From an uncultured virus (IMG/VR IMGVR_UViG_3300008113_000068) (lineage: Duplodnaviria > Heunggongvirae > Uroviricota > Caudoviricetes), in the IMG/VR virus record IMGVR_UViG_3300008113_000068: a DNA stretch of 64,000 nt. One strand, written 5' to 3'. The position numbers were made by a program, and so were the translations under genes. Positions 24,508-61,699 of this stretch are shown piece by piece. Position 1 is the first letter of the stretch. Every line of letters begins with the position of its first letter. The notes under the pieces were generated by a model. That model did not search any database. It was not told the DNA's origin and was given only the letters and a program-made list of their open reading frames with translations.

Positions 24508-24517
24508 CTTTCTAATT

Positions 24518-25042: not shown

Positions 25043-25043
25043 A

Positions 25044-25543: not shown

Positions 25544-25544
25544 T

Positions 25545-26210: not shown

Positions 26211-26215
26211 TTATT

Positions 26216-26323: not shown

Positions 26324-26325
26324 AA

Positions 26326-27690: not shown

Positions 27691-27708
27691 TTTGAATTTC
27701 TTTATTTA

Positions 27709-28179: not shown

Positions 28180-28181
28180 AC

Positions 28182-28803: not shown

Positions 28804-28836
28804 GGTTCTGTTTTTTTAGTGAATGTATTTGTTATT

Positions 28837-28873
28837 AAAAAAGGGCAGAGCAAATAATATTACCCTGCCCTTT
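28837..28873 (-). terminator. Intrinsic terminator after the capsid candidate
   Basis: AAAGGGCAG...CTGCCCTTT hairpin followed by a T-run on the minus strand. Confidence 0.75.
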
Positions 28874-28895
28874 AATATGTAGGTTGAATAGATGA

Positions 28896-32153: not shown

Positions 32154-32846
32154 TTAATCAATTTTAATTCTTCCTATCGAACCATGTTTGTAAAATTGTT
32201 CTTCAATTTCTGGTAATAGGTATTGTTTTCTTAATGTTGCAGGTCCATGTCCAATTTTTGCGCCAATTTTACGTAATGCTTCATTAAATACTTTCGCGCG
32301 TTGTTTTTCGTCTTTTACTTTACCTATGCGATTTAATTCCATCACCATCAATCTATTTGCATTGAATCCTCTGATGTCTTTTGATTTTGCATCAAACTTA
32401 TGCAAATAACGATTTACTTTGTCTGCTTTGATTTTAAAACCATCTTTCGTAACGAATACAAATGAATCATTTCGCTTCATTAAATCGCGTAACATCATCG
32501 CACATGTGACGTCTGTGAATTGTTTTTCATGTTCAACACCACTCTTACCCACATAATTCAATGTGACTGTGTTTCTATCTACAGTAATGTGTTTGCGTTT
32601 AAATTCAGTTACCCCGAAATGACCATTTTTCGCAGATTCGGAATTACCTACACGTTCTGATGTTAACATCATAATTCTAACAACAAGTGCAGTTAGGCGT
32701 GTTTTATCATCTGATGAATATAAATCAGCTTTTAGTTTTCTTTTCAACCTATCAATTTTATCGCGTAGGTTGTAAATAGAATCGCGTTTTAATTCCCAAC
32801 GCTTATCTAAATCATATTCTTTAATTTTCAGTTCCATGGAAGTCAA
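32154..32846 (-). CDS. DNA topoisomerase IB, catalytic domain only
   Basis: Catalytic pentad present: ERVGN (R), GKSG (K), KDIR (R), IGH (H), RKQYL (Y). Confidence 0.85.
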   Translation of the reverse strand: MTSMELKIKEYDLDKRWELKRDSIYNLRDKIDRLKRKLKADLYSSDDKTRLTALVVRIMMLTSERVGNSESAKNGHFGVTEFKRKHITVDRNTVTLNYVGKSGVEHEKQFTDVTCAMMLRDLMKRNDSFVFVTKDGFKIKADKVNRYLHKFDAKSKDIRGFNANRLMVMELNRIGKVKDEKQRAKVFNEALRKIGAKIGHGPATLRKQYLLPEIEEQFYKHGSIGRIKID

Positions 32847-38704: not shown

Positions 38705-41700
38705 TTAGCTATTACCTTTGTGTTTCCATCCTGACATTGAACCACCGCTAGCCATTTTATTAGTTTGTTGTTCAAAAAGATTTATCAAATCATCTTCATC
38801 TAACATTGCATTTTGTAAAACACCATTGCTACTTTGATTTGTTGAATAATATCTTTTCCAATAACCTTTTTCTTCTTTGTTTGGGATGATAGTTTGAAAA
38901 TATTTTTGACCATTAACTTCAATAAGTGTTTTTAATTTACCTTCTTTTTTCAGTTTTTGTAATTTGGTTTCACCAACTCCACCGCCATTAGCAAAGTGAT
39001 AAATTTCATCGTCCGTTTTATCATCGGTCACAAAAACTCTAACATCTTTCAATCCTAAATCTGCAAAATCTTCTTTGGCTACTTGAACCAATTTGGATAA
39101 ACCATTTTTGTCGTTAGTAGATGAATGAAAAAATGGTTTTTTACCTTTAACTTCTCCAAAAATATGATAACGCTTTCCGATTTCACCTTTGAGAGGTACT
39201 CCACCGCCATTAACCATTTTGTTTGATTCACCATTATTTGCAATAGAAGTAAATTGTTTCTCGTTATACTTTTTAGCTGTGTACTTGATTCGATAATATT
39301 TTTTATCTCCTGGTGATAAAGTTGCGTTCATACGTTTTGCATAATCTTTTGCTTTTTCTTCTGCATCAGTACCATCAAACGTTTTAACCAATTTATTCAT
39401 CGCTCTATCAAAAAGACCATTTTTTTCACCAATAGAACCACCACTCATAACTACGCAATATTGTGAATTACCAACTCCACCACCGCTAGCCATTTCATTT
39501 GATTGTAACCAGTTTTCAGATTGTTGTTTTAAATCTTCAACTGCATCCTTTTTTGTTTTTTTAGTTGAAGTGAATGTTTTAATAATATTTTCAGGATATC
39601 TTTTTTGTGAATTTTTATCAAAAACTTCTAAACGAAAATCTTTACGCGCTAATGTTCCGTCAAATCTAAATACAACTTCTCCGATATTTTCTTTTACGTA
39701 TTTGTAAGTTGGATTTGAATAAATTGTGTTTCTGCTTGTATCATTTACCCAAATAATTTGCGAACCTGGTTTCCTATCATCGTTGGTTTCTTTAATTCTA
39801 TTCATTACTTTATTTGCAAAAGATCCACCTTCAGACATTTTTGTTTTTACTACTCCTTGTAAATTATACAAATCTATAATCCTTTCGAATTTATCGTAAA
39901 ATGAATCTTCTTTATTAATAGGTTTAATTATTTCATCAAAAATTCTCACTTTACTTTTTGAAAGCTTGTATTTTACTCCTAATTCATCTAATTGTTTAGT
40001 GATATTTTGAACAACTTGTCCACCGCGTGACATTTTTCCGCCTTTAGCAAGTGATTCTTGTGAAATCATTGCCATAACAATATTTATAGAAATATAACCT
40101 TCTTTGTCAAAGAATAGTCTTGCGAATTTTCTAATACGTTCAATGTTACTTTCACTAAGTGTTTCACCATCCTCATTCATATTATCCCATTCTTGTACGC
40201 CTTTTGCGAAAGCAGAATCAAAATTTGTCAATTTTTCAGATAAGTATTTCGGTCCCGGATAATAAGTATCGTTGTAATCTAACCAGTATTCTGAGTCAAA
40301 TTGATTTGGTACCTCATTAGCTCTAGAAACATTTAATGCTTGTTTTACTGTTAAAGAAGTAATTGAGTATCCAGACAAATCATAAACAGCTTCTATTGCG
40401 TTTTTATCGTTTTCATCTGCATAAAATGTATATGATTCTAATTCGCCTTTATGGTAATCAGATTCTGATTCTAATCCGCTCTTATATTTTATATTGTATC
40501 CGTCGTCATCATAATCCCAATCCAATGAAACTAAATTTTTAGCTTTTGATAGTTCATCATATAATTTAACTAAAATTGTTGTTTTGTCATTATCATCTTC
40601 TTCAACATTCATCGTAATTGTCTTACCACCTTTATTTCCAATCATCATGTGTGCAAGGAAAGTATATATCTCATCTTTTTCGAAACCTTCATCTTCTAAT
40701 GAGATAACAATGTATTTTGCATTATTGATAAATTCATCAAGTGTTTCATTTGGAGCCAATTCTTCCATTCTCAAAATCCCACCTGTTGAAACATTGTTTT
40801 CATCAATCATTCCACCAAACGCCATCTTTCCACCATTTTTGTAAATAGGTTTTTTCATGTCTGCTTTGTTTTCACCATCAAGGTAATGTGTGACATCAGA
40901 CAAATCTGTTGTTGCGCGTTCCATTTTTGCAACTACCCAAGGTTCAACAACTGTTTTACTTGTTAATACTTTGTGTAATTCTTCAACATGATGTTTTGCT
41001 TCAACTGCTTGTGAATGTAACATCTCGTTGTTTTCTTCTTGAATGTTACCGCCATCTTCAAATAATCCAAAACGTTTTTTACGTTCACTTGGCATAGATT
41101 TTTTCTTCATAGTACCTAATGAAATAACATCCATATCTTTTTGTGCTAACACTGTACGTCCATTTTCGATGTCTACAATGTAATCACCCTCATCTGTTAT
41201 TTGTGCAATAACTCCTTTGTATTCATCACCTTGGTAATCAATTACAATTTCTTGACCTACAACACCGCCTTTCTCTAAACGAACTGCAAGATTAACATCT
41301 GAACGAATTGGTCTTACTTCGCGATATACAGTTCCGTTTCTCTTACCTTTAGCAATTTGAGTCATTGTAGGTTTATCATAATTACCACGACCTTTGAATC
41401 TCCATCCAACAGGTTTTGCAGGACGTTCAAGGTCTGTTCTAATTGTACTTTTACCCATCGTTTTCAAAAATGAATATTCGGGTTTTTTAGATAACCTACG
41501 AATTAAATCATTGAAATCTGATTTTGGTAACGCTTTTATTTCTGCGCGTTGTGCCAATAACGTTTTTGCAAGTTGTGGCGCAGATTTTGATGCATCCTTC
41601 AACTCGTCTTTTAAACGTGCTTGTTTCTTCTTTAAAGCGGTTTTCAACGTTTCGTTTGTTGTTTCGCTTAACTTGCGTTCAATAACTGCAAGTTCTTTTG

Positions 41701-41722
41701 TGATTGCTGTGCTTCTTAACAT
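38705..41722 (-). CDS. Mosaic polyvalent protein or polyprotein with about 11 [MFYL]xxGG junctions
   Basis: LEKGG, FEDGG, YKNGG, MAFGG, LAKGG, MSRGG, MSEGG, MASGG, MVNGG, FANGG and MASGG separate unrelated modules. Confidence 0.75.
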   Translation of the reverse strand: MLRSTAITKELAVIERKLSETTNETLKTALKKKQARLKDELKDASKSAPQLAKTLLAQRAEIKALPKSDFNDLIRRLSKKPEYSFLKTMGKSTIRTDLERPAKPVGWRFKGRGNYDKPTMTQIAKGKRNGTVYREVRPIRSDVNLAVRLEKGGVVGQEIVIDYQGDEYKGVIAQITDEGDYIVDIENGRTVLAQKDMDVISLGTMKKKSMPSERKKRFGLFEDGGNIQEENNEMLHSQAVEAKHHVEELHKVLTSKTVVEPWVVAKMERATTDLSDVTHYLDGENKADMKKPIYKNGGKMAFGGMIDENNVSTGGILRMEELAPNETLDEFINNAKYIVISLEDEGFEKDEIYTFLAHMMIGNKGGKTITMNVEEDDNDKTTILVKLYDELSKAKNLVSLDWDYDDDGYNIKYKSGLESESDYHKGELESYTFYADENDKNAIEAVYDLSGYSITSLTVKQALNVSRANEVPNQFDSEYWLDYNDTYYPGPKYLSEKLTNFDSAFAKGVQEWDNMNEDGETLSESNIERIRKFARLFFDKEGYISINIVMAMISQESLAKGGKMSRGGQVVQNITKQLDELGVKYKLSKSKVRIFDEIIKPINKEDSFYDKFERIIDLYNLQGVVKTKMSEGGSFANKVMNRIKETNDDRKPGSQIIWVNDTSRNTIYSNPTYKYVKENIGEVVFRFDGTLARKDFRLEVFDKNSQKRYPENIIKTFTSTKKTKKDAVEDLKQQSENWLQSNEMASGGGVGNSQYCVVMSGGSIGEKNGLFDRAMNKLVKTFDGTDAEEKAKDYAKRMNATLSPGDKKYYRIKYTAKKYNEKQFTSIANNGESNKMVNGGGVPLKGEIGKRYHIFGEVKGKKPFFHSSTNDKNGLSKLVQVAKEDFADLGLKDVRVFVTDDKTDDEIYHFANGGGVGETKLQKLKKEGKLKTLIEVNGQKYFQTIIPNKEEKGYWKRYYSTNQSSNGVLQNAMLDEDDLINLFEQQTNKMASGGSMSGWKHKGNS

Positions 41723-41741
41723 GTTCTAAAATTAATAATTT

Positions 41742-43637
41742 TTACTTTCTATTATTTATTTCTTTTTCAATATCAACTAGTTGAATAGTTAATTCATTGT
41801 ATTCATCATCATCTTCATTAAACTCTTGTTTTGCATCTAATGTTTCGCTGTATAACGCGTAAAGTTTATTTTTTGTCATTTTACTTAATTGCAATTGAAA
41901 ATCATTTTCAGGTGTTGATGTTTGTACAGGTTTTACGATTGTGATTCCTTTTACAAATTCATCATTAAGTAACTTGTTAATCGCACCAATTGTTAATTTA
42001 CCTTCAAGTTCTGTACCTTGTTGTGTTCTTAACGTATAAGATTTGTATTTAGGATTGTTGCGTTTGAATTTAATAACTTCATACTCACGTCCACTCCAAT
42101 TTAACTTTTTACCTACTAAATCCTCTGGTTTCCACTCTTTTTTGGTTGTAGTTGTTGGTGCAGGTTGAGATGATGCAGTAGATGTAGTCGTTTGAGGTTG
42201 TGCAGGAGGTGGCGTTGTTTCTTTCCATGTCCATGTTCCTGTTTTACCTATATTGATTGAATACCAGTTACCATCGTTACCTTTGAACTTAGTAGATAGT
42301 AATTCAATTTGCACTGCTGACGTAGAATGTTTTTCTGCAATCTTTTTTAACTCTCCTGCTGATTGTGTTGGTGATTTTCTATCGCCTTTATTAGGTGTAA
42401 ATGAATACGTGTATGTTAATTCTGATTGCGCAGGATATGTTTCGGGATTTGCTGCGGATTGCGTTGGTAATGGGTTTTTAGTAAAGTAATCTATATGACT
42501 TGACCATTGTGCTTTACCTAAGTAAATATTATTATTTTCTAATGACTGTACTGCTTCATCTAAATTTTTAAATCTCTCTTTTGAATATATTTCAGAAAAT
42601 GATTTTCCTAAATATGTATTAAACTCAGATTCAGGTATTCCAAGTGTTACACTAATTCCTTCTGCATCTAATTCTTCTCTTGTTTTAAAACGCCAAGTAG
42701 TTGTTTCACTTACATTTTGAAAAATATCATCGTAGAATATTTCATTGTTCGAATCTTGTGTAAAATATGATGAAGACTCGGTTTTTGATAATATTCCCTC
42801 ATCATCAACAAAAATGTATTTATAATCTAATACCTTTTTGTTACCATTTGACCATAAACCACCTAAGCTAAAAATAAGTTCTTGGAATTTTTTTGACTTA
42901 TCTTGTGTATCAAAATAAATTTTCGTATTGTAAAAATCAGATAATTGTACTTGTTCTGTTTCACTTACATTTGAGAATATTTCTTCGTAAATTCTTTCCT
43001 CTTTATCACTATCTTCCCAGGATTCTTGACTTAAAAAATATAGAGCACCATAATTATTTAAAGCTAAATACTTTTCATCAGTATTATTGACTAATTTTTT
43101 TTTCGATTCATCTTCCACATCATAATCTACCCATTCAGCACCTAAACTTAAAACTAATTCTTGAAATCTTTTTGATTTTTCAGGTGTATCAACTATGATT
43201 TTACTATATTTGAAATCATCTAGCGTCCATTGTTTAGTCTCACTAGTTTGTCCTTCGTATAAAACCCACCCACCAGTTTCAATTTCCTCTAATACATCCT
43301 CTATCTTTTTAAATACATTTCTAGGTTGGTTCTTATTACCCGCAAAGAATTGAACATAAACTCCAATTTTATTGTCTTTTATTTCAGTTATAGTATAAGT
43401 TATTTCTGTATTTGGTGGTTCTTCGCCTACCATATTTCTACGAAACACATCGCCTACCTTAAATGGTAATTCATCAACTTCAACAGGTAATTCATCACCA
43501 CCTAATTTTTTATTTAAGTAATTCAAAGCAAGGTTAATCGCAGAATATAAATCTGGATTTGCTGATTTTATTTCCTTTAATCTTGGTTCGTTAACAGCTT
43601 TCCATTCAGCTACAACTTGTTCTTTTGTATTTTCCAT
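41742..43637 (-). CDS. Multidomain protein with two ~80-aa repeats and an RxSP...GNDG module
   Basis: The repeats are shared with 48215..51772. Confidence 0.7.
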   Translation of the reverse strand: MENTKEQVVAEWKAVNEPRLKEIKSANPDLYSAINLALNYLNKKLGGDELPVEVDELPFKVGDVFRRNMVGEEPPNTEITYTITEIKDNKIGVYVQFFAGNKNQPRNVFKKIEDVLEEIETGGWVLYEGQTSETKQWTLDDFKYSKIIVDTPEKSKRFQELVLSLGAEWVDYDVEDESKKKLVNNTDEKYLALNNYGALYFLSQESWEDSDKEERIYEEIFSNVSETEQVQLSDFYNTKIYFDTQDKSKKFQELIFSLGGLWSNGNKKVLDYKYIFVDDEGILSKTESSSYFTQDSNNEIFYDDIFQNVSETTTWRFKTREELDAEGISVTLGIPESEFNTYLGKSFSEIYSKERFKNLDEAVQSLENNNIYLGKAQWSSHIDYFTKNPLPTQSAANPETYPAQSELTYTYSFTPNKGDRKSPTQSAGELKKIAEKHSTSAVQIELLSTKFKGNDGNWYSINIGKTGTWTWKETTPPPAQPQTTTSTASSQPAPTTTTKKEWKPEDLVGKKLNWSGREYEVIKFKRNNPKYKSYTLRTQQGTELEGKLTIGAINKLLNDEFVKGITIVKPVQTSTPENDFQLQLSKMTKNKLYALYSETLDAKQEFNEDDDEYNELTIQLVDIEKEINNRK

Positions 43638-43644
43638 TTATGAC

Positions 43645-43968
43645 TTATTGATTGTCTATAATTTCAATGTTCTCTATGTTTTCAACCAAACAACGACCTA
43701 AGAATGCATATTTTTCAAAAGGATTAGGAAAAAACTCTTTGAAATTAATTAACATACCGTTCTGTGTTATTTGATACAAATTAGATTCAACAACAGGAGC
43801 CAAACTATTGACTTCAGTAGATTCGTATTGCACAAATATATCTGTAGGAAAATCAGAATTAGTCATAACGCCAATGTTATATATTTTACCATTTCCTGAT
43901 TTTTCGTACTGACTCAATCTGAACATCAAACCTTTTAACTCTAACTCTTGTGCTTTGTATAATCTCAT
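43645..43968 (-). CDS. Hypothetical protein
   Basis: ORF within the operon. Confidence 0.65.
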   Translation of the reverse strand: MRLYKAQELELKGLMFRLSQYEKSGNGKIYNIGVMTNSDFPTDIFVQYESTEVNSLAPVVESNLYQITQNGMLINFKEFFPNPFEKYAFLGRCLVENIENIEIIDNQ

Positions 43969-43972
43969 TTTT

Positions 43973-45640
43973 TTATATTTTAGTTAGTTCTTCAATTAGC
44001 TTTTCAGCTATTTCATTCCGCTTTTCAATCTGTTCTGGTGGTGTTGCAAAAATACCTCCTCCACCAAAAATTGTCATTTCATTGATTTTCTCTGTAATAT
44101 ATTTGATTGGGTTTTCATAAGAGTAACCCACACTAATCGTATCCCCGTAAGCATTATATTGTAAAGGAGCTTTTACAAATGCTAAAAATTCTGTCAATAC
44201 CTCTTGGAAAAGTATGTTTTTTTCAACTCTAATCAAAAATTCAATCTCTTGAAGAATGGATTGTTGTTGTTTTATAATTTCGCGATAAACTTTAGTTGGT
44301 TTATTTGAGTTAAAAATATCAAATTTGTCTTTGATTGTAAATGCAGATATTTTCATCCACATTTCAAACCATTTATTTACTGAAGGTTCATTTTTAATCA
44401 ACTCTGAAATATCACTTTTATTAAATGCGTTCCGAATCCTATATTTGAAATCATCCCATTTTATATTCAAAGGTAAATCATGAAAATATATTAAACCTTG
44501 TGGTATAACTTCTTTTGCTTTCCAAATACCTTTTTCTGAATATTGTGCATATTTCTGTCTGAAACGTTCAAAACCTTCTTGATATTGTTTTTCTGTCCAA
44601 TCTGGATTTCCTCCTATGTTCAAAGAACCTGATGCTAATTCATGAAATCGCATATTATAAACTGCATGCTCATATAAATCTATATAAGACCTTGAACCTA
44701 CTGCGAAAAACCTTGGTTTATCAATTTCTTGCCCATATTCTTTAACGCACATAGGCATAATCGTATAACTACTATTTGGTTGATTATATTTTACCCATTC
44801 ATCATACAAAGGTAAAGTTATTCCTGTTAAAACATCTTTTTTCTTTGGTTTAGGTGAGTTTGCTGCAATTACAAAACGTGTAACATACAATTTAGTCAAT
44901 GTACCCATTTTTTCAAGATATTCAGCTGCCATTAACATAGGTATATGCCTTACAGCGAAAGAGAAATCATCGCTCATTCTAGTATAATAATGAGCTGAGT
45001 AAATTTCGACATAACGAACCTTACCACCTTGTCTTTTGTATTTCAAGTATGGTTTTTTAGTTTTAGATGCGAACTTTACTTTATTCGTTGGCATTGAAGG
45101 TATAATCAAACCAGTTCCCTCTTGTATTTTTGTTTGAAGGTTAGGTTGTTCTTGTAAAAGTTTAGTTAATCCTTTTTGCCTACGAACACAAATGTATTCT
45201 GTGCCTGTTTTATCGTCTTTATAAATAAAATTATTTACCCCTTGAATTACTACTTTATTAACATAATAATTAGGTACAACACCACTTGGAACATTATAAC
45301 TATCAAATAAATTCGGTTGGTCGTTTTTTAATTGCTCACTGTAAAATTCATGAACACGAAATAATTGTTGTGAAGCTAAACTAAAATCAAAAACACCAAT
45401 AGGTCTATCTGTAAATTCTAATTTACTTTTATCATTTTCGCCACCTAAATTGAAATTAATCGCATTACCTTCAAATAAATTTGAAAGACTTCTATCATAA
45501 ATATCATTTTTATACCTGAGTACGTATGCATCAAATGAGCCATTTCCTTTTTGAGAATCATAATATTCTTTAAATTCCTCTACGGTATCTAAAGCCCACC
45601 CATATAATTGCGCGTCTGACCAGTGGTTATATACACCCAT
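43973..45640 (-). CDS. Large hypothetical protein, possible divergent vWA-type partner of the AAA+ ATPase
   Basis: Position directly after the MoxR-type ATPase; no clear MIDAS motif. Confidence 0.5.
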   Translation of the reverse strand: MGVYNHWSDAQLYGWALDTVEEFKEYYDSQKGNGSFDAYVLRYKNDIYDRSLSNLFEGNAINFNLGGENDKSKLEFTDRPIGVFDFSLASQQLFRVHEFYSEQLKNDQPNLFDSYNVPSGVVPNYYVNKVVIQGVNNFIYKDDKTGTEYICVRRQKGLTKLLQEQPNLQTKIQEGTGLIIPSMPTNKVKFASKTKKPYLKYKRQGGKVRYVEIYSAHYYTRMSDDFSFAVRHIPMLMAAEYLEKMGTLTKLYVTRFVIAANSPKPKKKDVLTGITLPLYDEWVKYNQPNSSYTIMPMCVKEYGQEIDKPRFFAVGSRSYIDLYEHAVYNMRFHELASGSLNIGGNPDWTEKQYQEGFERFRQKYAQYSEKGIWKAKEVIPQGLIYFHDLPLNIKWDDFKYRIRNAFNKSDISELIKNEPSVNKWFEMWMKISAFTIKDKFDIFNSNKPTKVYREIIKQQQSILQEIEFLIRVEKNILFQEVLTEFLAFVKAPLQYNAYGDTISVGYSYENPIKYITEKINEMTIFGGGGIFATPPEQIEKRNEIAEKLIEELTKI

Positions 45641-45643
45641 CTT

Positions 45644-47032
45644 TTAGTTAGATTGAGATTGTTTATATTTTGTAATCAATGTTTGTGCTTCTGCAATTTC
45701 AGATGGTGTGTTGAAATCATTTGCAACTTTCATACCTGAATGAATGTATGGCATTTTGTTTTTCTCTGCAACTATTTTTTTGAAACCATCATAATCAACC
45801 ATAGTTATAATTGATTCTTTTTGAGCGGGTTTGAATAGGTTGAAGAATTCATCCATTGTATCAACCAATGTTTTTGGACTTGAAATCAAATTTGCTTTTC
45901 CTGTTTGAATTTCATCCATTACATCTCTATATGTGCGATATGTTTCTTTTGAATTAATCATAATACGCATTGAAACGAATGCTTGTGATTGTGCGCGAAG
46001 TTCAACGATTGCTTCACGTACTTTAATAAGGAAAATCCAAATGAAAGCATATCCCGACATAATTACATTGTATTCAAACTGATAATCATATCCAATTTTG
46101 TATGTTGAACCTACAAAACGGTCTTGTAAAGATAAATCTTGTTTGAAGTTCGCTTCATAATCTGGGTCAATAGTATTTAACGGAACGTTACCGGTTGCAA
46201 TAACGAAAAGATTTTGTAGGAATAATTGTACACCTTTACCATTTCTGATTGAAGGTCTAATTAACAATCCAGTTGCTGGGTTTTCAGAAAAGTTTTTAAC
46301 CTTCGCTAATGCATCATTCATGATACCTGCTGTATTCGGGTCAATTTTTGGTAACTCATCAAGTAACAAAACAACACCATCTACTCGTCTTGCACTTCCG
46401 TCAGATTCATAAATCACGTTTTCCCACGACATTGATACGCGACCTTCTTGGTATCCTTCAATCGTTTGACCACCTAAAATATCAAGAGGCGATGTATATT
46501 GTGAACAGTTCACAGTAATTAACTCCCAACCTAATAATTTAGCAATTTCTTCTGCCATGTATGTTTTACCTGTACCTGCAGCACCATATAAATATGAATT
46601 GTTTCTAGCTCTCATATCACTCAACAACATTTGAGTTAATGGCTTTTGCAAAAATGCATCAGTTGTTGATGTTACTTTCGGTTGTGCGTTGAGTTGAGTG
46701 ATTGTAAGTTCAATCTTACGACTGCTTTGAATTAATGCGCGTAAACTATCAGATAAATCAGTTTCATTGATTTTACGTGCTTTCAACACATCTTCAATTT
46801 CTTTACGTACATCTACCCCACTTGTAAATCCTTTTGAAATAGCTTTGTTTAATGCATCAAGAATTGCTTGTGCATCTGGGTCTTGTGTTACACCTGCTGA
46901 TTGATTGTGAATTGCAACTTTACCTTCTGTTTCAAGCATTCTCAATTGTGATTGCGCACTTGCAACAGCTTGTGGGTTTGCATTTTTATCAATGATTGCT
47001 TGTAATCTTTCTATTTGTTTTTCCTTATCCAT
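45644..47032 (-). CDS. MoxR / CbbQ / CobS-type AAA+ ATPase
   Basis: GAAGTGKT, VNCS, LLLDE, IATGN and LQDRF. Confidence 0.88.
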   Translation of the reverse strand: MDKEKQIERLQAIIDKNANPQAVASAQSQLRMLETEGKVAIHNQSAGVTQDPDAQAILDALNKAISKGFTSGVDVRKEIEDVLKARKINETDLSDSLRALIQSSRKIELTITQLNAQPKVTSTTDAFLQKPLTQMLLSDMRARNNSYLYGAAGTGKTYMAEEIAKLLGWELITVNCSQYTSPLDILGGQTIEGYQEGRVSMSWENVIYESDGSARRVDGVVLLLDELPKIDPNTAGIMNDALAKVKNFSENPATGLLIRPSIRNGKGVQLFLQNLFVIATGNVPLNTIDPDYEANFKQDLSLQDRFVGSTYKIGYDYQFEYNVIMSGYAFIWIFLIKVREAIVELRAQSQAFVSMRIMINSKETYRTYRDVMDEIQTGKANLISSPKTLVDTMDEFFNLFKPAQKESIITMVDYDGFKKIVAEKNKMPYIHSGMKVANDFNTPSEIAEAQTLITKYKQSQSN

Positions 47033-47033
47033 G

Positions 47034-48218
47034 TTATATATTTTTGAAATCGCTTACCATTTGTTTTACGAATTGATTTCTTGTTAAATCAGACCCGTTG
47101 AATTTATTTTTTAGTTCATTTACATTTACATTATTCAAAGTTAAAAAAGAATCAAATATTCTTTCAGTCCTTAATGAAGATTCAATATCATCAGGAGATA
47201 AACCTGTTTCTTCTGATAATTGTTGAATTGCACCTTTATAATCAACATTTTGAACTCTACCTTGTGATTCACTTTGACCATCGCTTAAATCGCCTCCAGT
47301 TTCATCTGGGTTTCTTTGAGGTTGTTCACCCGGTTGAGGTTGTTCGCCCGGTTGAGGTTGTTCGCCTGGTTGAGATTGTTCGCCCGGTTGAGGTTGTTCG
47401 CCTGGTTGAGGTTGTTCACCCGGTTGAGGTTGTTCACCCGGTTGAGGTTGTTCGCCCGGTTGAGGTTGTTCGCCCGGTTGAGGTTGTTCACCCGGTTGAG
47501 GTTGTTCGCCCGGTTGAGGTTGTTCACCTGGTTGAGGTTGTTCGCCCGGTTGAGGTTGTTCGCCTGGTTGAGGTTGTTCGCCCGGTTGAGGTTGTTCGCC
47601 TTCTTGTTCGGGTCCTTCTGTTCCACCCGGTTGTCCCGGTTGATTAACTGATTCTAATGCAATAATAAACGTTGTACTATCATTTGATGCATCTTCATAT
47701 TTCACATCATCAACCAATGCTAAATTCCATTTTGTATTAAATGGTTCAGATAGATTAGGGTCATTTGTGAAATCAAGTTCAGCAAATTTTGGTTTAGTGT
47801 TTTGAACATCATAATTATCAATATTCATTTCTAATGCTAATTCTTGTGTGTTATCTTGTTTCAATAAGAAAACAAATGACTTACCATTTTTCTCAACTGT
47901 GACCATCAATACTTGAACTTCTGGTTCCTCTCCTCCTTGTTGTGGGTTTTCTTGTTTTTGTGTTTCTTCGAACAAATCTTCAAACTTTTCCCACGCTTGT
48001 TTTAAATCATCAGTGTTAAAAATAGTATCTTCTGATTTGGTAATGACATTACCTTCTAAATCTTCAACTACTTTGTCAACAATAAACGAAATTCCACCTG
48101 CTAACTGAACTGCAAATAAAGATATGAGTATTTTTTTATCATCAGATGGATATTTGTAAATATACTCTGTTCTAGCACCTACTTTATTAACTGTTAAGTT
48201 TGATTTATCTAAAATCAT
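47034..48218 (-). CDS. Acidic protein with a (GEQPQP)16 linker
   Basis: Tandem hexapeptide repeat in frame. Confidence 0.75.
   Translation of the reverse strand: MILDKSNLTVNKVGARTEYIYKYPSDDKKILISLFAVQLAGGISFIVDKVVEDLEGNVITKSEDTIFNTDDLKQAWEKFEDLFEETQKQENPQQGGEEPEVQVLMVTVEKNGKSFVFLLKQDNTQELALEMNIDNYDVQNTKPKFAELDFTNDPNLSEPFNTKWNLALVDDVKYEDASNDSTTFIIALESVNQPGQPGGTEGPEQEGEQPQPGEQPQPGEQPQPGEQPQPGEQPQPGEQPQPGEQPQPGEQPQPGEQPQPGEQPQPGEQPQPGEQPQPGEQSQPGEQPQPGEQPQPGEQPQRNPDETGGDLSDGQSESQGRVQNVDYKGAIQQLSEETGLSPDDIESSLRTERIFDSFLTLNNVNVNELKNKFNGSDLTRNQFVKQMVSDFKNI
47316..47600. repeat. 18-bp coding tandem repeat, about 16 copies
   Basis: Unit TGAGGTTGTTC(G/A)CC(C/T)GGT, with variation mostly synonymous in the GEQPQP frame. 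Confidence 0.95.
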
Positions 48219-51200
48219 AATTTACCTCCTCTTTTTAAATAAAAACTTCTCATCGCTGAAATAGCTAATTTATGTCTGCTTGGTTCTGCGATTTTTGCTG
48301 AATTTGAATTGAAAACAATGTATGCTTTCGTTTTGTATGCGTCAGAGTTTGCATCTACTGATGGATTATCTTCATAATATACAATTCCATCACAAACGTT
48401 CTTATCTTTCAGCACTTGCAACATTTCAGGGCTATTTCGTAAATACATCCACGCTTTGAATTTTCTATTTGGGTCGGTTAACGCTTTATTGATTTTAAGT
48501 TCATCAGCATCAAGACCTGTCTGTAAATACATCCAATCAATAAAATCATCTGGTGAAACATCATTAATTTCAAAATATGTTAAATCCAATGGTGTTCTAA
48601 TATTCAAGAAGAATGGATATACGTAACCTTGTGTTCCTTGTTCTTGACCTTTCATTTCCGCAAACCAATTTGAGTATGCTTCATTTTCTGCAAAGTACAT
48701 AGCGGGAAATCTATCAAATTTAAAGAATGAGAATTCTGCTCCCGTTCCATGATACACAACTAATGGCTCGTAATTTTTACTTACAACGACCGAACATGGA
48801 ACATTTTCGTATGATGAATTTCTGTAATTGTATGCTAACGTAAAGTTACCAAACCAATTTTGAAATTCTTCAGTCATTGTCCAATCATAAATATTTTTCG
48901 GCAATGCAGTTGGTTGTCCATCAGGTGCAAATCCATCATTGTAAGGTTTTAAATCATACCTTGCTTGTGGTTTAACTGATGATGCACTGAATAACTCGTC
49001 TAATAAATTAAATTCGCCTTCATTTTTCTTTTTCAATTCTAAATCAAGTACATCAAGTTTGTCTTTCAATTCTTTCGCTTGCGTTTTTAACGAAAGCATA
49101 TTTTCTGAATCTGTTCCTGGTGTATTTTCAATCAAGAAAACAATATCATTATATTCATCATGAATTAATTCTCTTTCTGTTTTTACTTCAGAAATGTCTT
49201 TATGAGATGATTTTGTTTTTTGTTCATTTGCAACTTCTTGAACAACTTCTTTACTAGGTGTTTCTATTACTTCGAAAATATCTTTGAAGAATATCTCTTT
49301 GTTTTTTCTTTGTGAAAAGTGACCTTTATCAGTTGAGTGAAATATACTAAAATCATCATCAAGGAATAAAAATGGTTTGTCGATATATTGTACAATATTT
49401 TTGCCATTCCAGTTAAACCCTAATGTTAAAATTAATTCTTGAAAAGCTTTTGATTGTTCTTCTGATAACAAATTAATTTTTGTATCAAATAATTCACTTG
49501 GAGTTATTTCACGTTTAAGTTTAAACGTTTGTTTACCCGTTGTTCCTTTCAATTGAAATAAATCATCGAAGAATAATTCTTTACTTGGCCTATTTTCGTA
49601 AAAATCTTTAGCAGGAGGAGTATCTTTATCAAAACCAAGTATTTGTTCGCCGGCACCAAATTCATCATCTACATACAAATATTTTCCATTTGTATTTTGG
49701 ATTGTTTTAATACCACGTCCCCAAGTAATTCCTAATTCAATTGCTATTTTTTGAAAAGCTGCTGATTGCTCAGGAGTATCTACAATTATTTTAGTATTGT
49801 ATAAATCAGGCGCAAATATAGATTTTTTAAGTTCGTAAATATCTGCTGGTGGTTGAACTGATGTTGCAGGTGTTACAGCCGAACCTAATGGTGCATTTCC
49901 TCTATAATTTTCAATGAATTTATCGCGTGGTGAATCTTTTCTTTTACCACCTTCAGTTAAATCGTTAAAAATTACCCATTTATCTGTAATGTTCGTAATT
50001 TGAATATCAATCCTACCTTTTCGCGTTTGCAATTGACCTTTATCACCAATCTTTGCTTCACCTCCGTAAGTAGTTATTAAACCACCACCTGCGTATTCAT
50101 CTTCATCTAAACGATAGAAGTCAAGTTCATCAGCATCGTAAGTTTTTTCAGTTCCATCAACAAATTTCAAATGGAATTTACGACCATAATCTTTTACAAT
50201 TACACCCATTTTGTTTTCAGAAACAACTCTTGCACTATCACCAATTTTAGCTTTTTGCCATTCGACATTACCACCACCTTTAAGTTTTTTAGGTGCATAT
50301 ATTCTAGAATTATCAGTATTACAATTGTGACAAACATATTTATCAAATTCCTCTGACTTGTTTGTGTTCCAATTCCAATCACATTTTATGCATGTGATTT
50401 CTTGACCTATTTTTCCTCCTGTTTCCATTTTTAAATGGCGTTTTATGGCATTTTTAAATTTGGAATAATCTGAATATTCCGTTATCCTCATATTAAAACC
50501 TAAATTGCCATCTTCGCCTACTTTTGGATAAGTAGAAATTTGATAATTATTACCATTTTTTCTAGCAGAAGCGTATTTTGATAATCTAACTCTTTGATTA
50601 TTTTCAATTTCTTTCAAAACTAATTCAATTTTTCCGCCTTGCTCCATTTTAAGTTCGTCTTTATCAACCTTAGCTGCTTTTCCACCCATAACTGAGCTGT
50701 AAACTCTTGCCATTGCCCATTGTTCTTTTGAAGTGACATTAGGTCTTACACTAGATGGATTTGTTTTGTATGCACCAATTCCTTTATCGTAAATCTGTTG
50801 CAAACCTTTCATTGAAACGCCTGTATCTTTTGATACTTGTTCTAAGCTGTGCGATTGACCTTTTTTATACTTGTATTTGGTGTTGTATTTGTCTTTGTAC
50901 GTAACCACATTACCGCCTTCAGACATTTTACTATCTATATAATTTTTGTAGTATTCCTTTAACGCTTTTACAGTTTTGAAATTTTGTCCATTGAAAGAAT
51001 AACCAAGTCTATTCATCATAGTTCCTTTATATTCTACCCAATTTGTTGCTTTATCTGTTTCTTTTTTATATCTTAATTCGTTCTTGTCAAGATTAAAGAT
51101 GACTTTTTCATCAACTCCACCGCCTTCAGACATTTTAGATGCTTGTTTGTGTTTCCAACCTTTCTTAGCGATTTTCTCTTCAATCAGTTGTTTCATATAA

Positions 51201-51772
51201 GGCCATCCTTTTTCAACCTTATCACACCATTTCAACATCGCAACTACACCTTCAATTCTAAAATCATGAATATGTCTTGCAACGTATGAACGCCATTTGA
51301 TATACATCCATTTCTCTGAATCCAACCAATAACCGCGTTCTGAAACACGTTCTAAATTATTGAATGCTTCATTACCAAAAATGTTACCACCTAACTTCCA
51401 AATATCCGGATATGATTTTTTAATCTTTTTTGCGTAACTAACAATCCATTTGTTTGGAATATGATTAGGATTAAATTCTATGATGTTTCCACCATCTGAA
51501 TATTCATCTGGGTCTTCATCTGCACCTTCTGGTGGACCTATTGCAACTCCATTACCTGCTGATTGATTGATACGAGATAACTCTTTCCAGTATTTTTTTG
51601 ATGCTTCGCGATTAATAATAACTTCACCACCTTCTAACTCAACGGGTTTGTTACCTGCGTCTGTTACCACTGCTTTTATACCTCCTAATGGATTTCCTTG
51701 TTCATCGTAATGTCTTTTACCTACAAGCCATCCGCCTTTCTTACCATCATTAGTTTCGATTTTCTTTGCCAT
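48215..51772 (-). CDS. Polyvalent protein or polyprotein with xxGG junctions and a C-terminal ART-PolyVal-like ADP-ribosyltransferase domain
   Basis: FQNWFG, EPLVVYHGT, MYFA, YPFFLNIRTP, DGIVY and YIVFNS. Upstream are a Zn ribbon, SH3/KOW-like modules and repeat modules. Confidence 0.75.
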   Translation of the reverse strand: MAKKIETNDGKKGGWLVGKRHYDEQGNPLGGIKAVVTDAGNKPVELEGGEVIINREASKKYWKELSRINQSAGNGVAIGPPEGADEDPDEYSDGGNIIEFNPNHIPNKWIVSYAKKIKKSYPDIWKLGGNIFGNEAFNNLERVSERGYWLDSEKWMYIKWRSYVARHIHDFRIEGVVAMLKWCDKVEKGWPYMKQLIEEKIAKKGWKHKQASKMSEGGGVDEKVIFNLDKNELRYKKETDKATNWVEYKGTMMNRLGYSFNGQNFKTVKALKEYYKNYIDSKMSEGGNVVTYKDKYNTKYKYKKGQSHSLEQVSKDTGVSMKGLQQIYDKGIGAYKTNPSSVRPNVTSKEQWAMARVYSSVMGGKAAKVDKDELKMEQGGKIELVLKEIENNQRVRLSKYASARKNGNNYQISTYPKVGEDGNLGFNMRITEYSDYSKFKNAIKRHLKMETGGKIGQEITCIKCDWNWNTNKSEEFDKYVCHNCNTDNSRIYAPKKLKGGGNVEWQKAKIGDSARVVSENKMGVIVKDYGRKFHLKFVDGTEKTYDADELDFYRLDEDEYAGGGLITTYGGEAKIGDKGQLQTRKGRIDIQITNITDKWVIFNDLTEGGKRKDSPRDKFIENYRGNAPLGSAVTPATSVQPPADIYELKKSIFAPDLYNTKIIVDTPEQSAAFQKIAIELGITWGRGIKTIQNTNGKYLYVDDEFGAGEQILGFDKDTPPAKDFYENRPSKELFFDDLFQLKGTTGKQTFKLKREITPSELFDTKINLLSEEQSKAFQELILTLGFNWNGKNIVQYIDKPFLFLDDDFSIFHSTDKGHFSQRKNKEIFFKDIFEVIETPSKEVVQEVANEQKTKSSHKDISEVKTERELIHDEYNDIVFLIENTPGTDSENMLSLKTQAKELKDKLDVLDLELKKKNEGEFNLLDELFSASSVKPQARYDLKPYNDGFAPDGQPTALPKNIYDWTMTEEFQNWFGNFTLAYNYRNSSYENVPCSVVVSKNYEPLVVYHGTGAEFSFFKFDRFPAMYFAENEAYSNWFAEMKGQEQGTQGYVYPFFLNIRTPLDLTYFEINDVSPDDFIDWMYLQTGLDADELKINKALTDPNRKFKAWMYLRNSPEMLQVLKDKNVCDGIVYYEDNPSVDANSDAYKTKAYIVFNSNSAKIAEPSRHKLAISAMRSFYLKRGGKL

Positions 51773-54512: not shown

Positions 54513-55354
54513 TCAAATTCTAATTTACCTGTGTTTGCTAAATTCGTTTTTTCTGTAAACGATTGTGTTTCTTTAATTTCAATTGGTTCTAATGCAACGT
54601 CTTTCATTGCAGTTGTTTTCTTAGGTCTAAATGCCATATCAACAGTTGTATCACCATCTTTAATCGCTTGACCTATTCCTATCAATACAACTAAATCATC
54701 TTGTGTGACATGTTCAATTGCAGCTTTACCTACAACCGTTAGAATTTCGCGTTCTGTTAATTCGTATGTTGAAGCAAAACCATCAAATACTTTTTTGCGT
54801 TTTGCCATCAATTTCGTATCATCTGAAAGGTCACCTGTAATTTTGTGTTTCGCTTCATTGTAAACCTTATCAACGATTGCGCGAGGAATTACATTCAAGA
54901 TAGCATTACGCATCGCAATAGAATTAGCTGCATTACCCGTTACGGTAATCATATCTTCATTCATGCGACCAGATTTAGTCATAATACTTCTTTTTACTTC
55001 AACTTTGATTGCAAGGTTGTTTTCTAAATCAAATGCAATTGCCTGTGATGTTAATGTTTTTTGGTCAATCGTAATAACTTTCGCTTCAATACGTAAGTTT
55101 CCCCAATTCTGCGCAAGTATTTTTGCTAAGTGAACTGTAGGTCCTGTAATGACTTTTCCCGCGCGTGGTAATGAATATGTGCATGTAGATGCAGTTTCAT
55201 AATCCATCGTTACGATAACTACTGAATTTTCTATTGCGCGTTTCAAATTACGCGGGTATGCTTTTGCTGTTGCTATTTGTGTATCAATTACTGCTTTGTC
55301 TTGGTTATAAATAACCGACATGTCTTGTACTTCTGTGATTGTAATATCTTCCAT
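54509..55354 (-). CDS. Putative single-strand annealing recombinase
   Basis: QIATAKAYPR, YSLPRAGKVITGP and ILAQNWGN; paired with the exonuclease. Confidence 0.55.
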   Translation of the reverse strand: MEDITITEVQDMSVIYNQDKAVIDTQIATAKAYPRNLKRAIENSVVIVTMDYETASTCTYSLPRAGKVITGPTVHLAKILAQNWGNLRIEAKVITIDQKTLTSQAIAFDLENNLAIKVEVKRSIMTKSGRMNEDMITVTGNAANSIAMRNAILNVIPRAIVDKVYNEAKHKITGDLSDDTKLMAKRKKVFDGFASTYELTEREILTVVGKAAIEHVTQDDLVVLIGIGQAIKDGDTTVDMAFRPKKTTAMKDVALEPIEIKETQSFTEKTNLANTGKLEFE

Positions 55355-56196
55355 TATAAAATTGTAATTAATTGTGAATCTTTTAGTGTATCAAAATATG
55401 TGTCTAAAGAACCTAAGGAATAGCATTCTTTGAGTAATTCAAATTCATTGTAACTAGGCCAATAATTATTGTCTTGACAGAATTTCAATAAATCTAATCC
55501 CATCCTGTATTGTTCGCGCCCGTAGTCATACATCTCATCATTCAATCCATACAATGCAACTTCGTATGGTGCAGTTTTTGAACATGCTGCAAAAATGTAA
55601 TTCTCGCGCCCAATGAAGTCACAGTAATAAGCAGCTGAAAGTGAATAGGAGTATGTGAATACATCTGATTTGAATTTTCTTGCAGAAGAATCAAGACAAC
55701 TTTTAATATCAACGATTGTACTTTTTGTTGAACTTAAAATATCTGGGCGTAATCTTATTTTTAAACCCGTTATCTCATCAATCGTATAACAAGACACCTC
55801 TCTGTGAGAATCCTTCATTAATTCCACAAGAGAATTGTTTTTCAAGGCGTTTTCAGATATCAACCTAATCATTTCCATTTCATCTTCATAAAGAATCGTT
55901 TTTCCTACTGAAGTTTCATTGAATTCTGCAATCTGCTGTTTTCCTTCTTTTGTTCTTGCATCAACTTTTGGATAAACCACATAATTCGTTTTAAACAATT
56001 GAGGTTCTAGAATTAATTCATGCAAACCAGAACCTATGTTAAAATGCCTACCTGTTGATTTTTCAACTTTTTCGTTTCTCTCGTAATAATAGTAGCGCGG
56101 TGATTTTAGAAAGTTTTTGATGTCTGACGCTGATACATGGTCTTTTTTGCCTAAGTATTCTTCAAACGTGTCTTTGACAAATTCAGGTTTAATCAT
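55354..56196 (-). CDS. RecE / exonuclease VIII-like PD-(D/E)xK nuclease
   Basis: SASDIK, GSGLH..ILEP, RLRPD, IVDIKS and AAYY. Confidence 0.85.
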   Translation of the reverse strand: MIKPEFVKDTFEEYLGKKDHVSASDIKNFLKSPRYYYYERNEKVEKSTGRHFNIGSGLHELILEPQLFKTNYVVYPKVDARTKEGKQQIAEFNETSVGKTILYEDEMEMIRLISENALKNNSLVELMKDSHREVSCYTIDEITGLKIRLRPDILSSTKSTIVDIKSCLDSSARKFKSDVFTYSYSLSAAYYCDFIGRENYIFAACSKTAPYEVALYGLNDEMYDYGREQYRMGLDLLKFCQDNNYWPSYNEFELLKECYSLGSLDTYFDTLKDSQLITIL

Positions 56197-60387: not shown

Positions 60388-61007
60388 AACCCTAATATTT
60401 TCCCTTTCGATTTTACTGTTTCTCCAACTAATGTAACTTTCGCAATATTATTAGGAACCCAATAAATAAAATGCTTCGCACATTCACCAGCATCTACATA
60501 AACTGTACTTACTGCCATTTGCTCTTTTATGAATAATTCAATCATATTCAATATTTGATTCTTAGTCATCCTTTGTTTCATTCCTATTAAATCAATCAAA
60601 CTTTGATTCTCTTGTAATTCCTTTTGAAATTGTTCTGGTGTTTTTTTTAAGTTAATGACATTAGTTTGTTCTCTGTTTAATAAACTCCTATCAATCAATT
60701 GCCCCCACATGTTGTTAAAAGTAATTCTATTCAAAGAAATAGTTACAATTTTTGCATGGTGTAGTTCAACGAAATTCGATTCCCATTTTGGATAGTTCGG
60801 AATTTCTGAAATAAACATTTCAAAAGACATTGCATTTTCATCCAATGAGTCTTTTCCTTTGAAGTGTTTGATGAGGCAATTGATATAAAGAGATTTAGTC
60901 ATTGAAGATATTTTGCAATCTTTCTTTGCATCAAATATCTGTTCAATCACATCAAGTGTAATTAATGAAAGCATGTTTCTCATTACACACCTGTTTTCTG
61001 ATTCCAA
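60384..61007 (-). CDS. Putative replication initiator or helicase loader
   Basis: Overlaps the dnaB start; assignment from position only. Confidence 0.45.
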   Translation of the reverse strand: MESENRCVMRNMLSLITLDVIEQIFDAKKDCKISSMTKSLYINCLIKHFKGKDSLDENAMSFEMFISEIPNYPKWESNFVELHHAKIVTISLNRITFNNMWGQLIDRSLLNREQTNVINLKKTPEQFQKELQENQSLIDLIGMKQRMTKNQILNMIELFIKEQMAVSTVYVDAGECAKHFIYWVPNNIAKVTLVGETVKSKGKILGL

Positions 61008-61699
61008 ATAACTACATGTAAACGTTCTGAGTATCTCAGTTGGTTTTTACGACATAACTCAGCAACCAACAATCTTGTGCGTAATAATTCTTCTTGTGAT
61101 GAACCTGCTGGCATCAAAACAACTTGGTCCATTAAAATGTGATGTCCATAATCATCAATCACTTCATCAAAATCTGATTCTTTTTCAATAACAAATTTGA
61201 AAATAGTGCTTGACAATTGATTTTTAAATAAATTCAATGCATTGGGATTTATTCTAACCTTTTTTGTATTCTGTTCACCTGCGTTTGATAGTTTAGGTGA
61301 TACGTTCCAATAATCAACCCATCCTAACATATCTTCACTTGGTTCTATAGTTGCATTTGTTTCAATTTCAATGATTGGATATACTCTGTATTTTTCGAAA
61401 AAGTAATTAAAAAATTCAACAATCATCTTTTGATGTATTAAAGGTTCTCCACCTGTAACAACCAAATGAACTTTGTGCTTTAAAAGTAACTTCTCATACT
61501 CCTCACCTAATACTTCTTCAAATGGTAATGCTTTTGATTTACGCCATACCTCAATCGTATCGCAAATCCATGATTCTGATTGGCAGAGGATATTGCATCC
61601 ACCTAATCGTAAAAATACAGCAGGTATTCCCATCGTTTGGCCTTCGCCTTGAATAGAATAAAATACTTCTGATACGGGTAATTTTTTTACAGTGCTCAT
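60983..61699 (-). CDS. queE: 7-carboxy-7-deazaguanine synthase (radical SAM)
   Basis: EVFYSIQGEG, FLRLGGCNILC...CDT, TGGEP, IETN and VSPKL. Confidence 0.92.
   Translation of the reverse strand: MSTVKKLPVSEVFYSIQGEGQTMGIPAVFLRLGGCNILCQSESWICDTIEVWRKSKALPFEEVLGEEYEKLLLKHKVHLVVTGGEPLIHQKMIVEFFNYFFEKYRVYPIIEIETNATIEPSEDMLGWVDYWNVSPKLSNAGEQNTKKVRINPNALNLFKNQLSSTIFKFVIEKESDFDEVIDDYGHHILMDQVVLMPAGSSQEELLRTRLLVAELCRKNQLRYSERLHVVIWNQKTGV

Follow-up and report, generated by a model that had tools for sequence, protein, structure and literature searches.

Two genes in a 64,000-nucleotide stretch of DNA from an uncultured virus (IMG/VR record IMGVR_UViG_3300008113_000068; the whole stretch is called the window below) encode the proteins P0001 and P0002, of 1005 and 1185 amino acids (aa), in which small modules are joined by an eight-residue junction motif, K-[M/Y/F]-x-x-G-G-x-[V/I]. 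This motif is specific to the two proteins within the genome, sits at module borders as judged from domain matches and structural models, and is, in sequence comparisons, the place where related phages insert, delete and swap modules. It most resembles a polyprotein cleavage site, a reading by analogy to which an even chance is assigned here.

Two polyvalent proteins and their shared junction motif

From their sequences, P0001 and P0002 are phage "polyvalent proteins" in the sense of Iyer et al. 2017 (PMC5512222), who describe many unrelated enzymatic and binding domains per polypeptide with predicted processing into separate domains, and who propose built-in zincin-like (MPTase) or assemblin-like peptidases as the processing agents. 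This name is preferable to "polyproteins", the term of the original prediction. P0002 contains at least two domains of disparate type by Pfam and modeling, namely an ART-PolyVal domain (43.6 bits against a cut-off of 31.2), DUF5824, a zinc (Zn) ribbon, and beta barrels. P0001 itself carries no signature family (no Pfam family at E <= 0.01 and no PHROG match); 170 relatives share its first three modules, and among the best 120 of these some carry LPD11, ArdA, RadC, RelA_SpoT, DUF6496, or Zeta toxin domains. Across 29 relatives of P0001 and P0002, Pfam detected varying combinations of ART-PolyVal, Kinase-PolyVal, Zeta toxin, GNAT, topoisomerase IB, Eco57I methylase, DUF5661, DUF6496, LPD11, ArdA, RadC, RelA/SpoT, and DUF2958. 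The ART-PolyVal, Kinase-PolyVal, and LPD11 signatures, the ArdA, RadC, and RelA/SpoT domains, and the phage origin are all features of the class as presented in PMC5512222; unlike the proteins considered there, P0001 and P0002 yielded no zincin-like or assemblin-like peptidase, which is frequent in the class without defining it, nor any other peptidase family in Pfam at E <= 0.01.

In both families, the N-terminal part is conserved and specific to the family, and the rest of the chain is a variable series of small modules that fold independently. The N-terminal domain of P0002 (~205 aa) is shared by 900 relatives in the protein collection that diverge beyond it, with 64 invariant columns among 61 sequences, and its aa 100-205 are helical in the AlphaFold model, with a predicted local distance difference test score (pLDDT) of ~90. 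The modules of P0001 and P0002 (ADP-ribosyltransferase, DUF5824, Zn ribbon, SH3/Tudor-like barrels, and helical bundles), like those of their families, are predicted to act in anti-defence or host takeover. A profile search of the PDB with the P0002 N-terminal domain gave only low-complexity noise and no relative, the ESM Atlas offered nothing usable for this domain or for a 555-aa open reading frame (ORF) of the window, and fold searches with the whole 1185-residue model returned only generic helical-hairpin and Tudor/KOW-like matches. Likewise, the barrel at aa 565-625 matched Tudor, BAH, and KOW folds weakly (Z 7.2-7.5), at a level not exceeding the noise of the tool. Among GenBank phages, no DNA match to the locus and no protein match to P0001 were obtained, and matches to P0002 were confined to its ART and DUF5824 parts. 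The family-1 gene of one relative (63% identical; L004:2998-5884) consists of two overlapping ORFs of 622 and 360 aa; its split point is not at a motif and may reflect a frameshift or a sequencing error.

With the pattern [MFYL]..GG, P0001 has 11 sites, exactly the number originally counted, and P0002 has nine rather than the eight first reported, against means of 1.03 +/- 1.03 and 1.20 +/- 1.03 in 200 shuffles per protein. The excess is family-wide, with 945 sites in 122 proteins where 135.5 are expected. The narrower pattern M..GG occurs six and four times in the two ORFs and is absent from the other 69 window ORFs of at least 100 aa. A position matrix trained on relatives only, with the window proteins and two near-identical relatives excluded, was applied to all window ORFs of at least 50 aa; its top 16 sites all fall in P0001 and P0002 (11 and 5, scores 10.9-20.8), and the best score elsewhere in the window is 6.1. 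Two P0002 sites, LKGGG and YAGGG, match the motif only if the last two glycines set the register.

That Gly- and Lys-rich proteins would yield such pentamers by composition is a practically negligible explanation. Both proteins do contain ~8% Gly and 11-12% Lys; nevertheless, the shuffles, which produce about one pentamer per protein, reject it, two giant Gly-rich ORFs of the window with 94 and 116 GG dipeptides have no M..GG and no high-scoring site, and an unrelated 3633-aa polyvalent protein of the Bacteroides phage BF1-TP2 has 4 sites against 2.25 expected. As this BF1-TP2 protein lacks the junction motif, the motif belongs to the present lineage and not to the whole class. A profile search of genome contigs with the single N-terminal domain as query found nothing, and with the alignment as query it found two contigs of metagenome-assembled genomes, one labelled Saprospiraceae, whose distant relative mostly has a [Y/F]-x-K-G-G version. 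The main text of PMC5512222 contains neither "linker" nor "glycine" and thus describes no conserved junction motif; a full-text literature search together with look-ups in that paper returned no account of such a motif in polyvalent proteins.

The motif was defined on 241 proteins, from which GG sites with flanks less than 40% mutually identical were retained (1040 sites). Lys occupies position -4 in 38% of them, M, Y, and F occupy -3 in 31, 20, and 16%, A, E, and K are found at -2, and V, I, and L follow at the second residue past GG in 30, 20, and 9%. Grouped by residue type, M/F/Y/W stand at -3 in 705 sites (background 12.5%), K/R at -4 in 454 (15.1%), and I/V/L/M/F at +3 in 703 (25.2%), with no information outside -4 to +3. 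Among the 705 sites with M/F/Y/W at -3, Lys at -4 rises to 49.5%, and Pro in the core amounts to 0-1% against a background of 2.9%. The early remark that the motifs are often preceded by Lys agrees with its presence before the hydrophobic residue at 10 of the 20 window sites. A lineage-specific "dialect" of this hydrophobic residue was rejected, given that M, Y, and F are mixed inside single proteins and that family 1 shows no over-dispersion; family 2 shows some, for which relatedness may account.

Selection acts on the peptide and not on the DNA, because the Gly codons at the motif vary (four codons at each Gly) and the alternatives ATG, TAY, and TTY share no bases. A DNA-level recombination site is ruled out by the varying junction codons and the lack of long repeats at the borders of insertions and deletions (indels). 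As a separate observation, the first motif Gly is GGC at 8 of the 20 window sites against 9 of 131 other Gly codons, and at 10 of 36 against 27 of 270 in five loci, a modest enrichment without explanation. It is very improbable that the junctions are internal translation starts, at which AAA-ATG would initiate nested products sharing a C-terminus, or traces of gene fission and fusion. Although M is the commonest residue at -3 and is preceded by AAA at 9 of the 10 window M sites, at 36% of the 1040 sites this position is filled by Y or F, which cannot start translation and which occur alongside M in single proteins. Three of 286 family proteins begin exactly at the motif M (MEDGG..., MENGG...), but short proteins may be truncated gene calls, and the GG-x-[V/I] half of the motif would be left unexplained.

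Placement of the motif and module exchange

In 28 proteins with Pfam hits, only 3 of 251 motif sites lie inside Pfam envelopes, where 45.5 are expected, and all three belong to DUF5824 matches, in their loose N-terminal part; the hydrophobic residue of the next motif usually comes 1-9 residues after a domain ends. In the two AlphaFold models together, 19 of 20 sites occur in low-confidence linkers. For P0002 (mean pLDDT 67, 28% of residues below 50), eight of nine sites are in segments of pLDDT < 50 that flank confident blocks, and the exception, LTEGG at aa 605, was rejected as a junction since it forms a turn between the strands at aa 599-604 and 610-615 of the barrel (pLDDT ~90). For P0001, all 11 sites overlap such segments, a weak test because its model is poor (mean pLDDT 52; 531 of 1005 residues, or 53%, below 50). 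The claim that the motifs mark boundaries between small domains is strongly supported, apart from LTEGG inside the barrel. In the C-terminal half of P0002 (aa 610-1178), domain borders lack the motif. Three further P0002 linkers (aa 628-650, 740-748, and 837-863) are also without it.

An IMG/VR contig from a relative carries both genes with almost identical flanks. Comparison of P0001 and P0002 with their almost identical counterparts shows six whole-module differences, and in five of them GG motifs stand at both borders. Between IYKNGG and KMAFGGMI, a 50-aa DUF6496 module is inserted (DUF6496 is located at aa 305-345 in P0123). A 266-aa block is delimited by KMSEGG and by GNKGG, the latter not canonical. 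One segment, from MA[S/N]GGG to the terminal KMA[S/T]GG, is replaced, another is swapped between two KMxxGG sites, and a 73-aa module is lost between KMEQGG and KMETGG. The sixth event, at P0002 aa 838-861, lies away from any motif.

Breakpoints were also assessed across the families from alignments (high-scoring segment pairs, HSPs) that stop while both proteins continue, with "at the motif" meaning within 6 residues. Among HSPs of at least 95% identity, 62 of 63 internal ends and 23 of 26 internal starts are at the motif, compared with 12% and 8% of random positions; at 85% identity, the counts are 203 of 308 ends and 112 of 194 starts. Relatedness among the proteins means that these counts cannot be treated as independent events. 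The module-swapping joint envisaged in the original prediction is thus borne out by both the indels and the HSP ends.

When the 241 proteins are cut at the motif, 2,066 sites are obtained (median 8 per protein, range 3-19), and the internal segments between them have a median length of 80 aa and form 444 clusters, 15 of which are common to both families. Tandem sites are represented by the 100 of 1825 internal segments that are no longer than 12 aa, and most module borders carry a single site. A free-standing topoisomerase IB of the window is 45-48% identical to topoisomerase IB cassettes within polyvalent proteins of relatives; the cassette has the motif at both sides in P0052, and in P0075 the motif is seen at the N-terminal border only.

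Exchange is the sole function actually shown, and it lends some weight to a rather unlikely alternative in which the motif is a universal adaptor that is never cut, a hinge left intact in the mature protein and persisting since cassettes that carry it exchange in frame. The proteins would then act as beads on a string, an arrangement that may also help threading through a narrow delivery channel. The position of the sites in linkers predicted to be disordered would suit such a hinge, as would the lack of a protease in the scanned ORFs and related contigs, and a RecE-like exonuclease encoded in the window could favour short-homology recombination. However, a hinge would call for no particular residues at -4 (K), -3 (M/Y/F), and +3 (V/I) and would have no need to exclude Pro; the motif is absent from other P0002 linkers and persists at C-termini, which offer nothing to hinge, and the coding DNA is conserved no further than the peptide requires.

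Candidate cleavage, docking, and terminal peptides

Sharply bounded, proline-free, and terminally retained sites are the pattern of viral polyprotein cleavage sites. The likeness of the junctions to such sites arises because a specific, proline-free peptide stands at nearly every small-module border, is kept at termini, and is absent from other linkers. In the proposed mechanism, unrelated small modules joined by one linear eight-residue motif in disordered linkers would be cut at that motif by a dedicated endopeptidase, which would release separate small proteins in a manner analogous to viral polyprotein sites and polyubiquitin junctions. The GWKHK peptide found at termini would serve as a removable targeting or packaging tag, and the proteins would enter the host together with the phage genome, on the model of T4 Alt and of the polyvalent proteins treated in PMC5512222.

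Comparison with known systems shows partial resemblances. Several Gly-Gly codes are familiar: adenain, African swine fever virus (ASFV) pS273R acting on pp220 and pp62, and coronavirus PLpro recognize a hydrophobic-x-G-G consensus. The present sites likewise place a hydrophobic residue upstream of Gly-Gly at the junctions of a multi-module precursor, but relative to that consensus their register is shifted by one to hydrophobic-x-x-G-G, and no Pfam C5 or C48 match was found in the scanned window ORFs and related contigs. In polyubiquitin, modules in a row each end in G-G, and the residues after the final G-G are trimmed. P0001 and P0002 resemble such precursors in their rows of GG-ended modules and in the few residues past the last GG, whereas their modules are mutually unrelated and do not adopt beta-grasp folds. 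The scanned window ORFs contained no deubiquitinase or JAB peptidase, and JAB modules, of the RadC-like kind, are confined to a few relatives (P0217, P0226). Double-glycine leaders processed by C39 peptidases are single and N-terminal, have conserved positions out to about -15, and are cut after G-G. The shared feature is a GG with hydrophobic positions upstream; in contrast to these leaders, the motif recurs inside the chain, differs in register, and is uninformative beyond -4.

In phage T4, a short terminal capsid-targeting peptide is removed at a short motif by gp21, and small anti-defence proteins are packed in the head; these are encoded by separate small genes with one N-terminal tag each, and the protease also cuts head proteins. 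The likeness lies in Alt and the internal proteins, since an ADP-ribosyltransferase such as that of P0002 is packed in the T4 head and injected (for Alt, see PMC5512222). Unlike in T4, the modules here form strings with an internal motif, and the motif occurs in no other window protein. Roseobacter phage CRP-701 encodes an 874-aa fusion, annotated as major capsid protein (L008:2084-4708), the sequence of which reads as an N-terminal part with a DUF5824-like segment, then a prohead-protease-like part, and then the capsid protein. A DUF5824-like segment in this head polyprotein fits a capsid-interior location by analogy and is one hint for packaging.

Several results weigh against cleavage and packaging. 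A Pfam scan of 57 of the 71 window ORFs of at least 100 aa (subsets also compared with PHROGs and NCBIfam) found no protease domain except M15 cell-wall peptidases (lysins), and hence no C5, C48, C57, or C63 protease; ~5.5 kb of the window's contig lies outside the window, and divergent folds were not part of this search. In two related contigs of 71 and 51 kb, there was no match to C48 or C5 (PF02902 and PF00770), C39 (PF03412), or S78 (prohead protease, PF04586), so the Ulp1- or adenain-like enzyme for which the original prediction advised a search was found in neither place. As no other window protein has a canonical site, nothing ties the motif to a head-maturation protease, a weak test given that head genes were not recognized in the window scans. 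In the 71-kb and 51-kb relatives, Terminase_6N and HK97 capsid families had no match either; packaging of P0001 and P0002 is for this reason deduced from their class. Moreover, the hydrophobic residue would be at P5 if the cut follows GG, compared with P4 in the adenain/PLpro consensus, the P0001 linker test is weak as noted above, and cleavage at the motif is itself something we infer by analogy.

The GWKHK peptide adjoins a motif in both proteins, as originally stated: at aa 998-1002 in P0001, and in P0002 between the N-terminal domain and the first junction. Among 241 proteins, GW[KR]H[KR] occurs 77 times, and in the 76 occurrences listed, it is terminal or near GG except for a few internal copies. 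In family 2, 44 of 120 proteins end in GW[KR]H[KR] plus at most four residues, 37 of them with GG 1-4 residues earlier; in family 1, ten proteins start with M-x(1-4)-GWK[HF]K, and others have the arrangement of P0002. The motif itself is retained at the extreme C-terminus with only 2-11 residues following, and 27 of 121 family-1 proteins terminate in [FY]L[KE][KR]GGK[LV]. A hinge does not readily account for a junction at the extreme terminus, which fits a trimmed tail or a cassette scar. The encapsidation tag suggested in the original prediction appears to fit the terminal GWKHK better than the GG motif. That prediction also regarded the motif as a second signal beside SNADG; SNADG occurs once in the window (26712, minus strand, in a 454-aa ORF) and ENADG once (24189, minus strand), neither of them in P0001 or P0002, and there is no sign of a related first signal.

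An unlikely alternative is that junctions and GWKHK cap are repeated docking motifs for a common partner that loads, unfolds, or ejects the chain; candidate partners would be the capsid interior or an inner membrane, a portal, or the MoxR-like AAA+ ATPase whose gene lies between those of P0001 and P0002. A sharply defined, proline-free core is what a peptide bound in extended conformation would have, GWKHK is limited to termini or motif-adjacent positions apart from the few internal copies, and two relatives (L002 and L004) likewise have the polyvalent gene, an acidic-repeat protein, and the AAA+ ATPase in this order. Nevertheless, such a tag has no reason to mark nearly every module border and nowhere else. 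Returning to cleavage, its fullest version, in which a true cleavage code is read by a protease of an unrecognized family and GWKHK is a removable particle-retention tag, possibly in a non-tailed particle with an internal membrane, is considered improbable as a whole.

Gene neighbourhood, virus type, and biological meaning

The window has a guanine-cytosine content of ~31%, with nearly all genes on the minus strand (Table 1). Between the P0001 and P0002 genes lie five genes, encoding the 394-aa PGEQPQ-repeat protein, a 462-aa MoxR/CobS-like AAA+ ATPase, the 555-aa ORF, a 107-aa ORF, and a 631-aa mosaic protein without the junction motif; the corresponding acidic protein of L004 has a different repeat. 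The window also encodes DnaB, RecE-like, RusA, endolysin, and queuosine-pathway genes, and the relatives are on IMG/VR viral contigs. The queuosine-type genes suggest, on sequence grounds, a 7-deazaguanine modification of the DNA. Fe/Mn superoxide dismutase and sulfotransferase genes are further phage-borne functions, and the two giant GG-rich ORFs are probably Gly-rich, fibre-like proteins.

The virus could be a non-tailed one of ~70 kb with an internal membrane, as suggested by a run of ORFs with single membrane-spanning segments and by the lack of recognizable terminase, portal, HK97 capsid, and tail genes. This run (17871-29609, minus strand) comprises 14 ORFs with one membrane-spanning-like segment each, mostly C-terminal, and one of them is a glucosaminidase. 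In size and type, a 282-aa HerA/FtsK-type ATPase resembles the packaging ATPases known from membrane-containing phages; a phmmer search of the PDB found no relative for this ATPase or for a 401-aa ORF. CheckV completeness is only 42% and 27% for the 71-kb and 51-kb relatives, respectively, although many family members are on contigs of 68-73 kb.

Table 1. Positions of the polyvalent proteins, their modules and junctions, and other genes in the window
Feature	Position	Strand	Basis or remark
P0001, polyvalent protein, family 2, 1005 aa	38705..41722	-	ORF
Junction RLEKGGVV, P0001 aa 148-155	41258..41281	-	score 12.9; edge of low-pLDDT segment 138-151
SH3-like beta module, P0001 aa 154-207	41102..41263	-	five strands, pLDDT 76-88
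Junction LFEDGGNI, P0001 aa 220-227	41042..41065	-	score 15.0; within low-pLDDT segment 208-225
Tandem junctions IYKNGG-KMAFGGMI, P0001 aa 293-306	40805..40846	-	scores 11.0, 20.0
Tandem junctions SLAKGG-KMSRGGQV, P0001 aa 557-570	40013..40054	-	scores 10.9, 15.5
Junction KMSEGGSF, P0001 aa 628-635	39818..39841	-	score 13.1; right border of 266-aa block missing in relative
Junction EMASGGGV, P0001 aa 743-750	39473..39496	-	score 18.2; left border of block replaced in relative
Junction KMVNGGGV, P0001 aa 835-842	39197..39220	-	score 17.1
Junction HFANGGGV, P0001 aa 909-916	38975..38998	-	score 16.2
C-terminal cap KMASGG-SMS-GWKHK-G, P0001 aa 989-1003, then NS and stop codon	38714..38758	-	
P0002, polyvalent protein, family 1, 1185 aa	48215..51772	-	ORF; Pfam
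Conserved N-terminal domain, family-defining "anchor", P0002 aa 1-205	51158..51772	-	sequence alignment; model
Junction EYSDGGNI, P0002 aa 90-97	51482..51505	-	score 13.6; within pLDDT < 50 segment 72-96
GWKHK peptide, P0002 aa 205-209	51146..51160	-	
Junction KMSEGGGV, P0002 aa 213-220	51113..51136	-	score 20.8; left border of swap against L002
DUF5824 module, P0002 envelope aa 266-371, folded part 290-375	50660..50977	-	Pfam E 2.2e-13; pLDDT 75-92
Junction KMSEGGNV, P0002 aa 282-289	50906..50929	-	score 19.1; right border of L002 swap; low-pLDDT 280-288
Junction KMEQGGKI, P0002 aa 375-382	50627..50650	-	score 16.5; left border of 73-aa module absent from L002
Junction KMETGGKI, P0002 aa 448-455	50408..50431	-	score 17.0; right border of 73-aa module absent from L002
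Zn-ribbon module, CxxC...CxxC, P0002 aa 454-496	50285..50413	-	sequence; pLDDT 78-88
Junction KLKGGGNV, P0002 aa 496-503	50264..50287	-	canonical in last-two-Gly register; opens low-pLDDT segment 494-531
Junction EYAGGGLI, P0002 aa 559-566	50075..50098	-	within low-pLDDT segment 549-563
SH3/Tudor/KOW-like beta-barrel module, P0002 aa 565-625	49898..50080	-	pLDDT ~90
DLTEGGKR, P0002 aa 604-611, pattern match but not a junction	49940..49963	-	score 2.5
ART-PolyVal ADP-ribosyltransferase domain, P0002 aa 1002-1162	48287..48769	-	Pfam E 6.5e-11; pLDDT 81-94
C-terminal YLKRGGKL of P0002, two residues after motif	48218..48241	-	sequence
Five genes between P0001 and P0002	41742..48218	-	Pfam, PHROG scans
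MoxR/CobS-like AAA+ ATPase	45644..47032	-	
394-aa protein, ~20 tandem PGEQPQ repeats, between P0002 and AAA+ ATPase	47034..48218	-	
Fe/Mn superoxide dismutase	3446..4042	-	
Sulfotransferase	7509..8342	-	
Giant ORF, 1119 aa	9639..12998	-	94 GG dipeptides, junction motif 0
Giant ORF, 1484 aa	13009..17463	-	116 GG dipeptides, junction motif 0
Free-standing topoisomerase IB	32154..32846	-	
HerA/FtsK-type ATPase, 282 aa	33941..34789	-	DUF87/HerA E 3.6e-7, TrwB weakly
RecE-like exonuclease	55354..56196		
QueE-like, tRNA-guanine-transglycosylase-like, and GTP cyclohydrolase genes	60983..63982	-	

Processing of polyvalent proteins into separate effectors has been predicted, but to our knowledge no general code for the cut sites has been described. 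The eight-residue junction, sharply defined and present about 2,000 times in 241 proteins, provides concrete peptides on which cleavage can be tested. These natural sequences show a phage lineage shuffling its predicted anti-defence modules in frame, with almost all recent breakpoints on the junction, and the 444 clusters of mostly uncharacterized small modules constitute a catalogue of candidate counter-defence proteins with precise boundaries. If the junction is indeed a cleavage code, widespread ~70-kb Bacteroidota viruses would express a combinatorial anti-defence arsenal in the manner of eukaryotic-virus polyproteins, with effectors plugged in at the cut sites.

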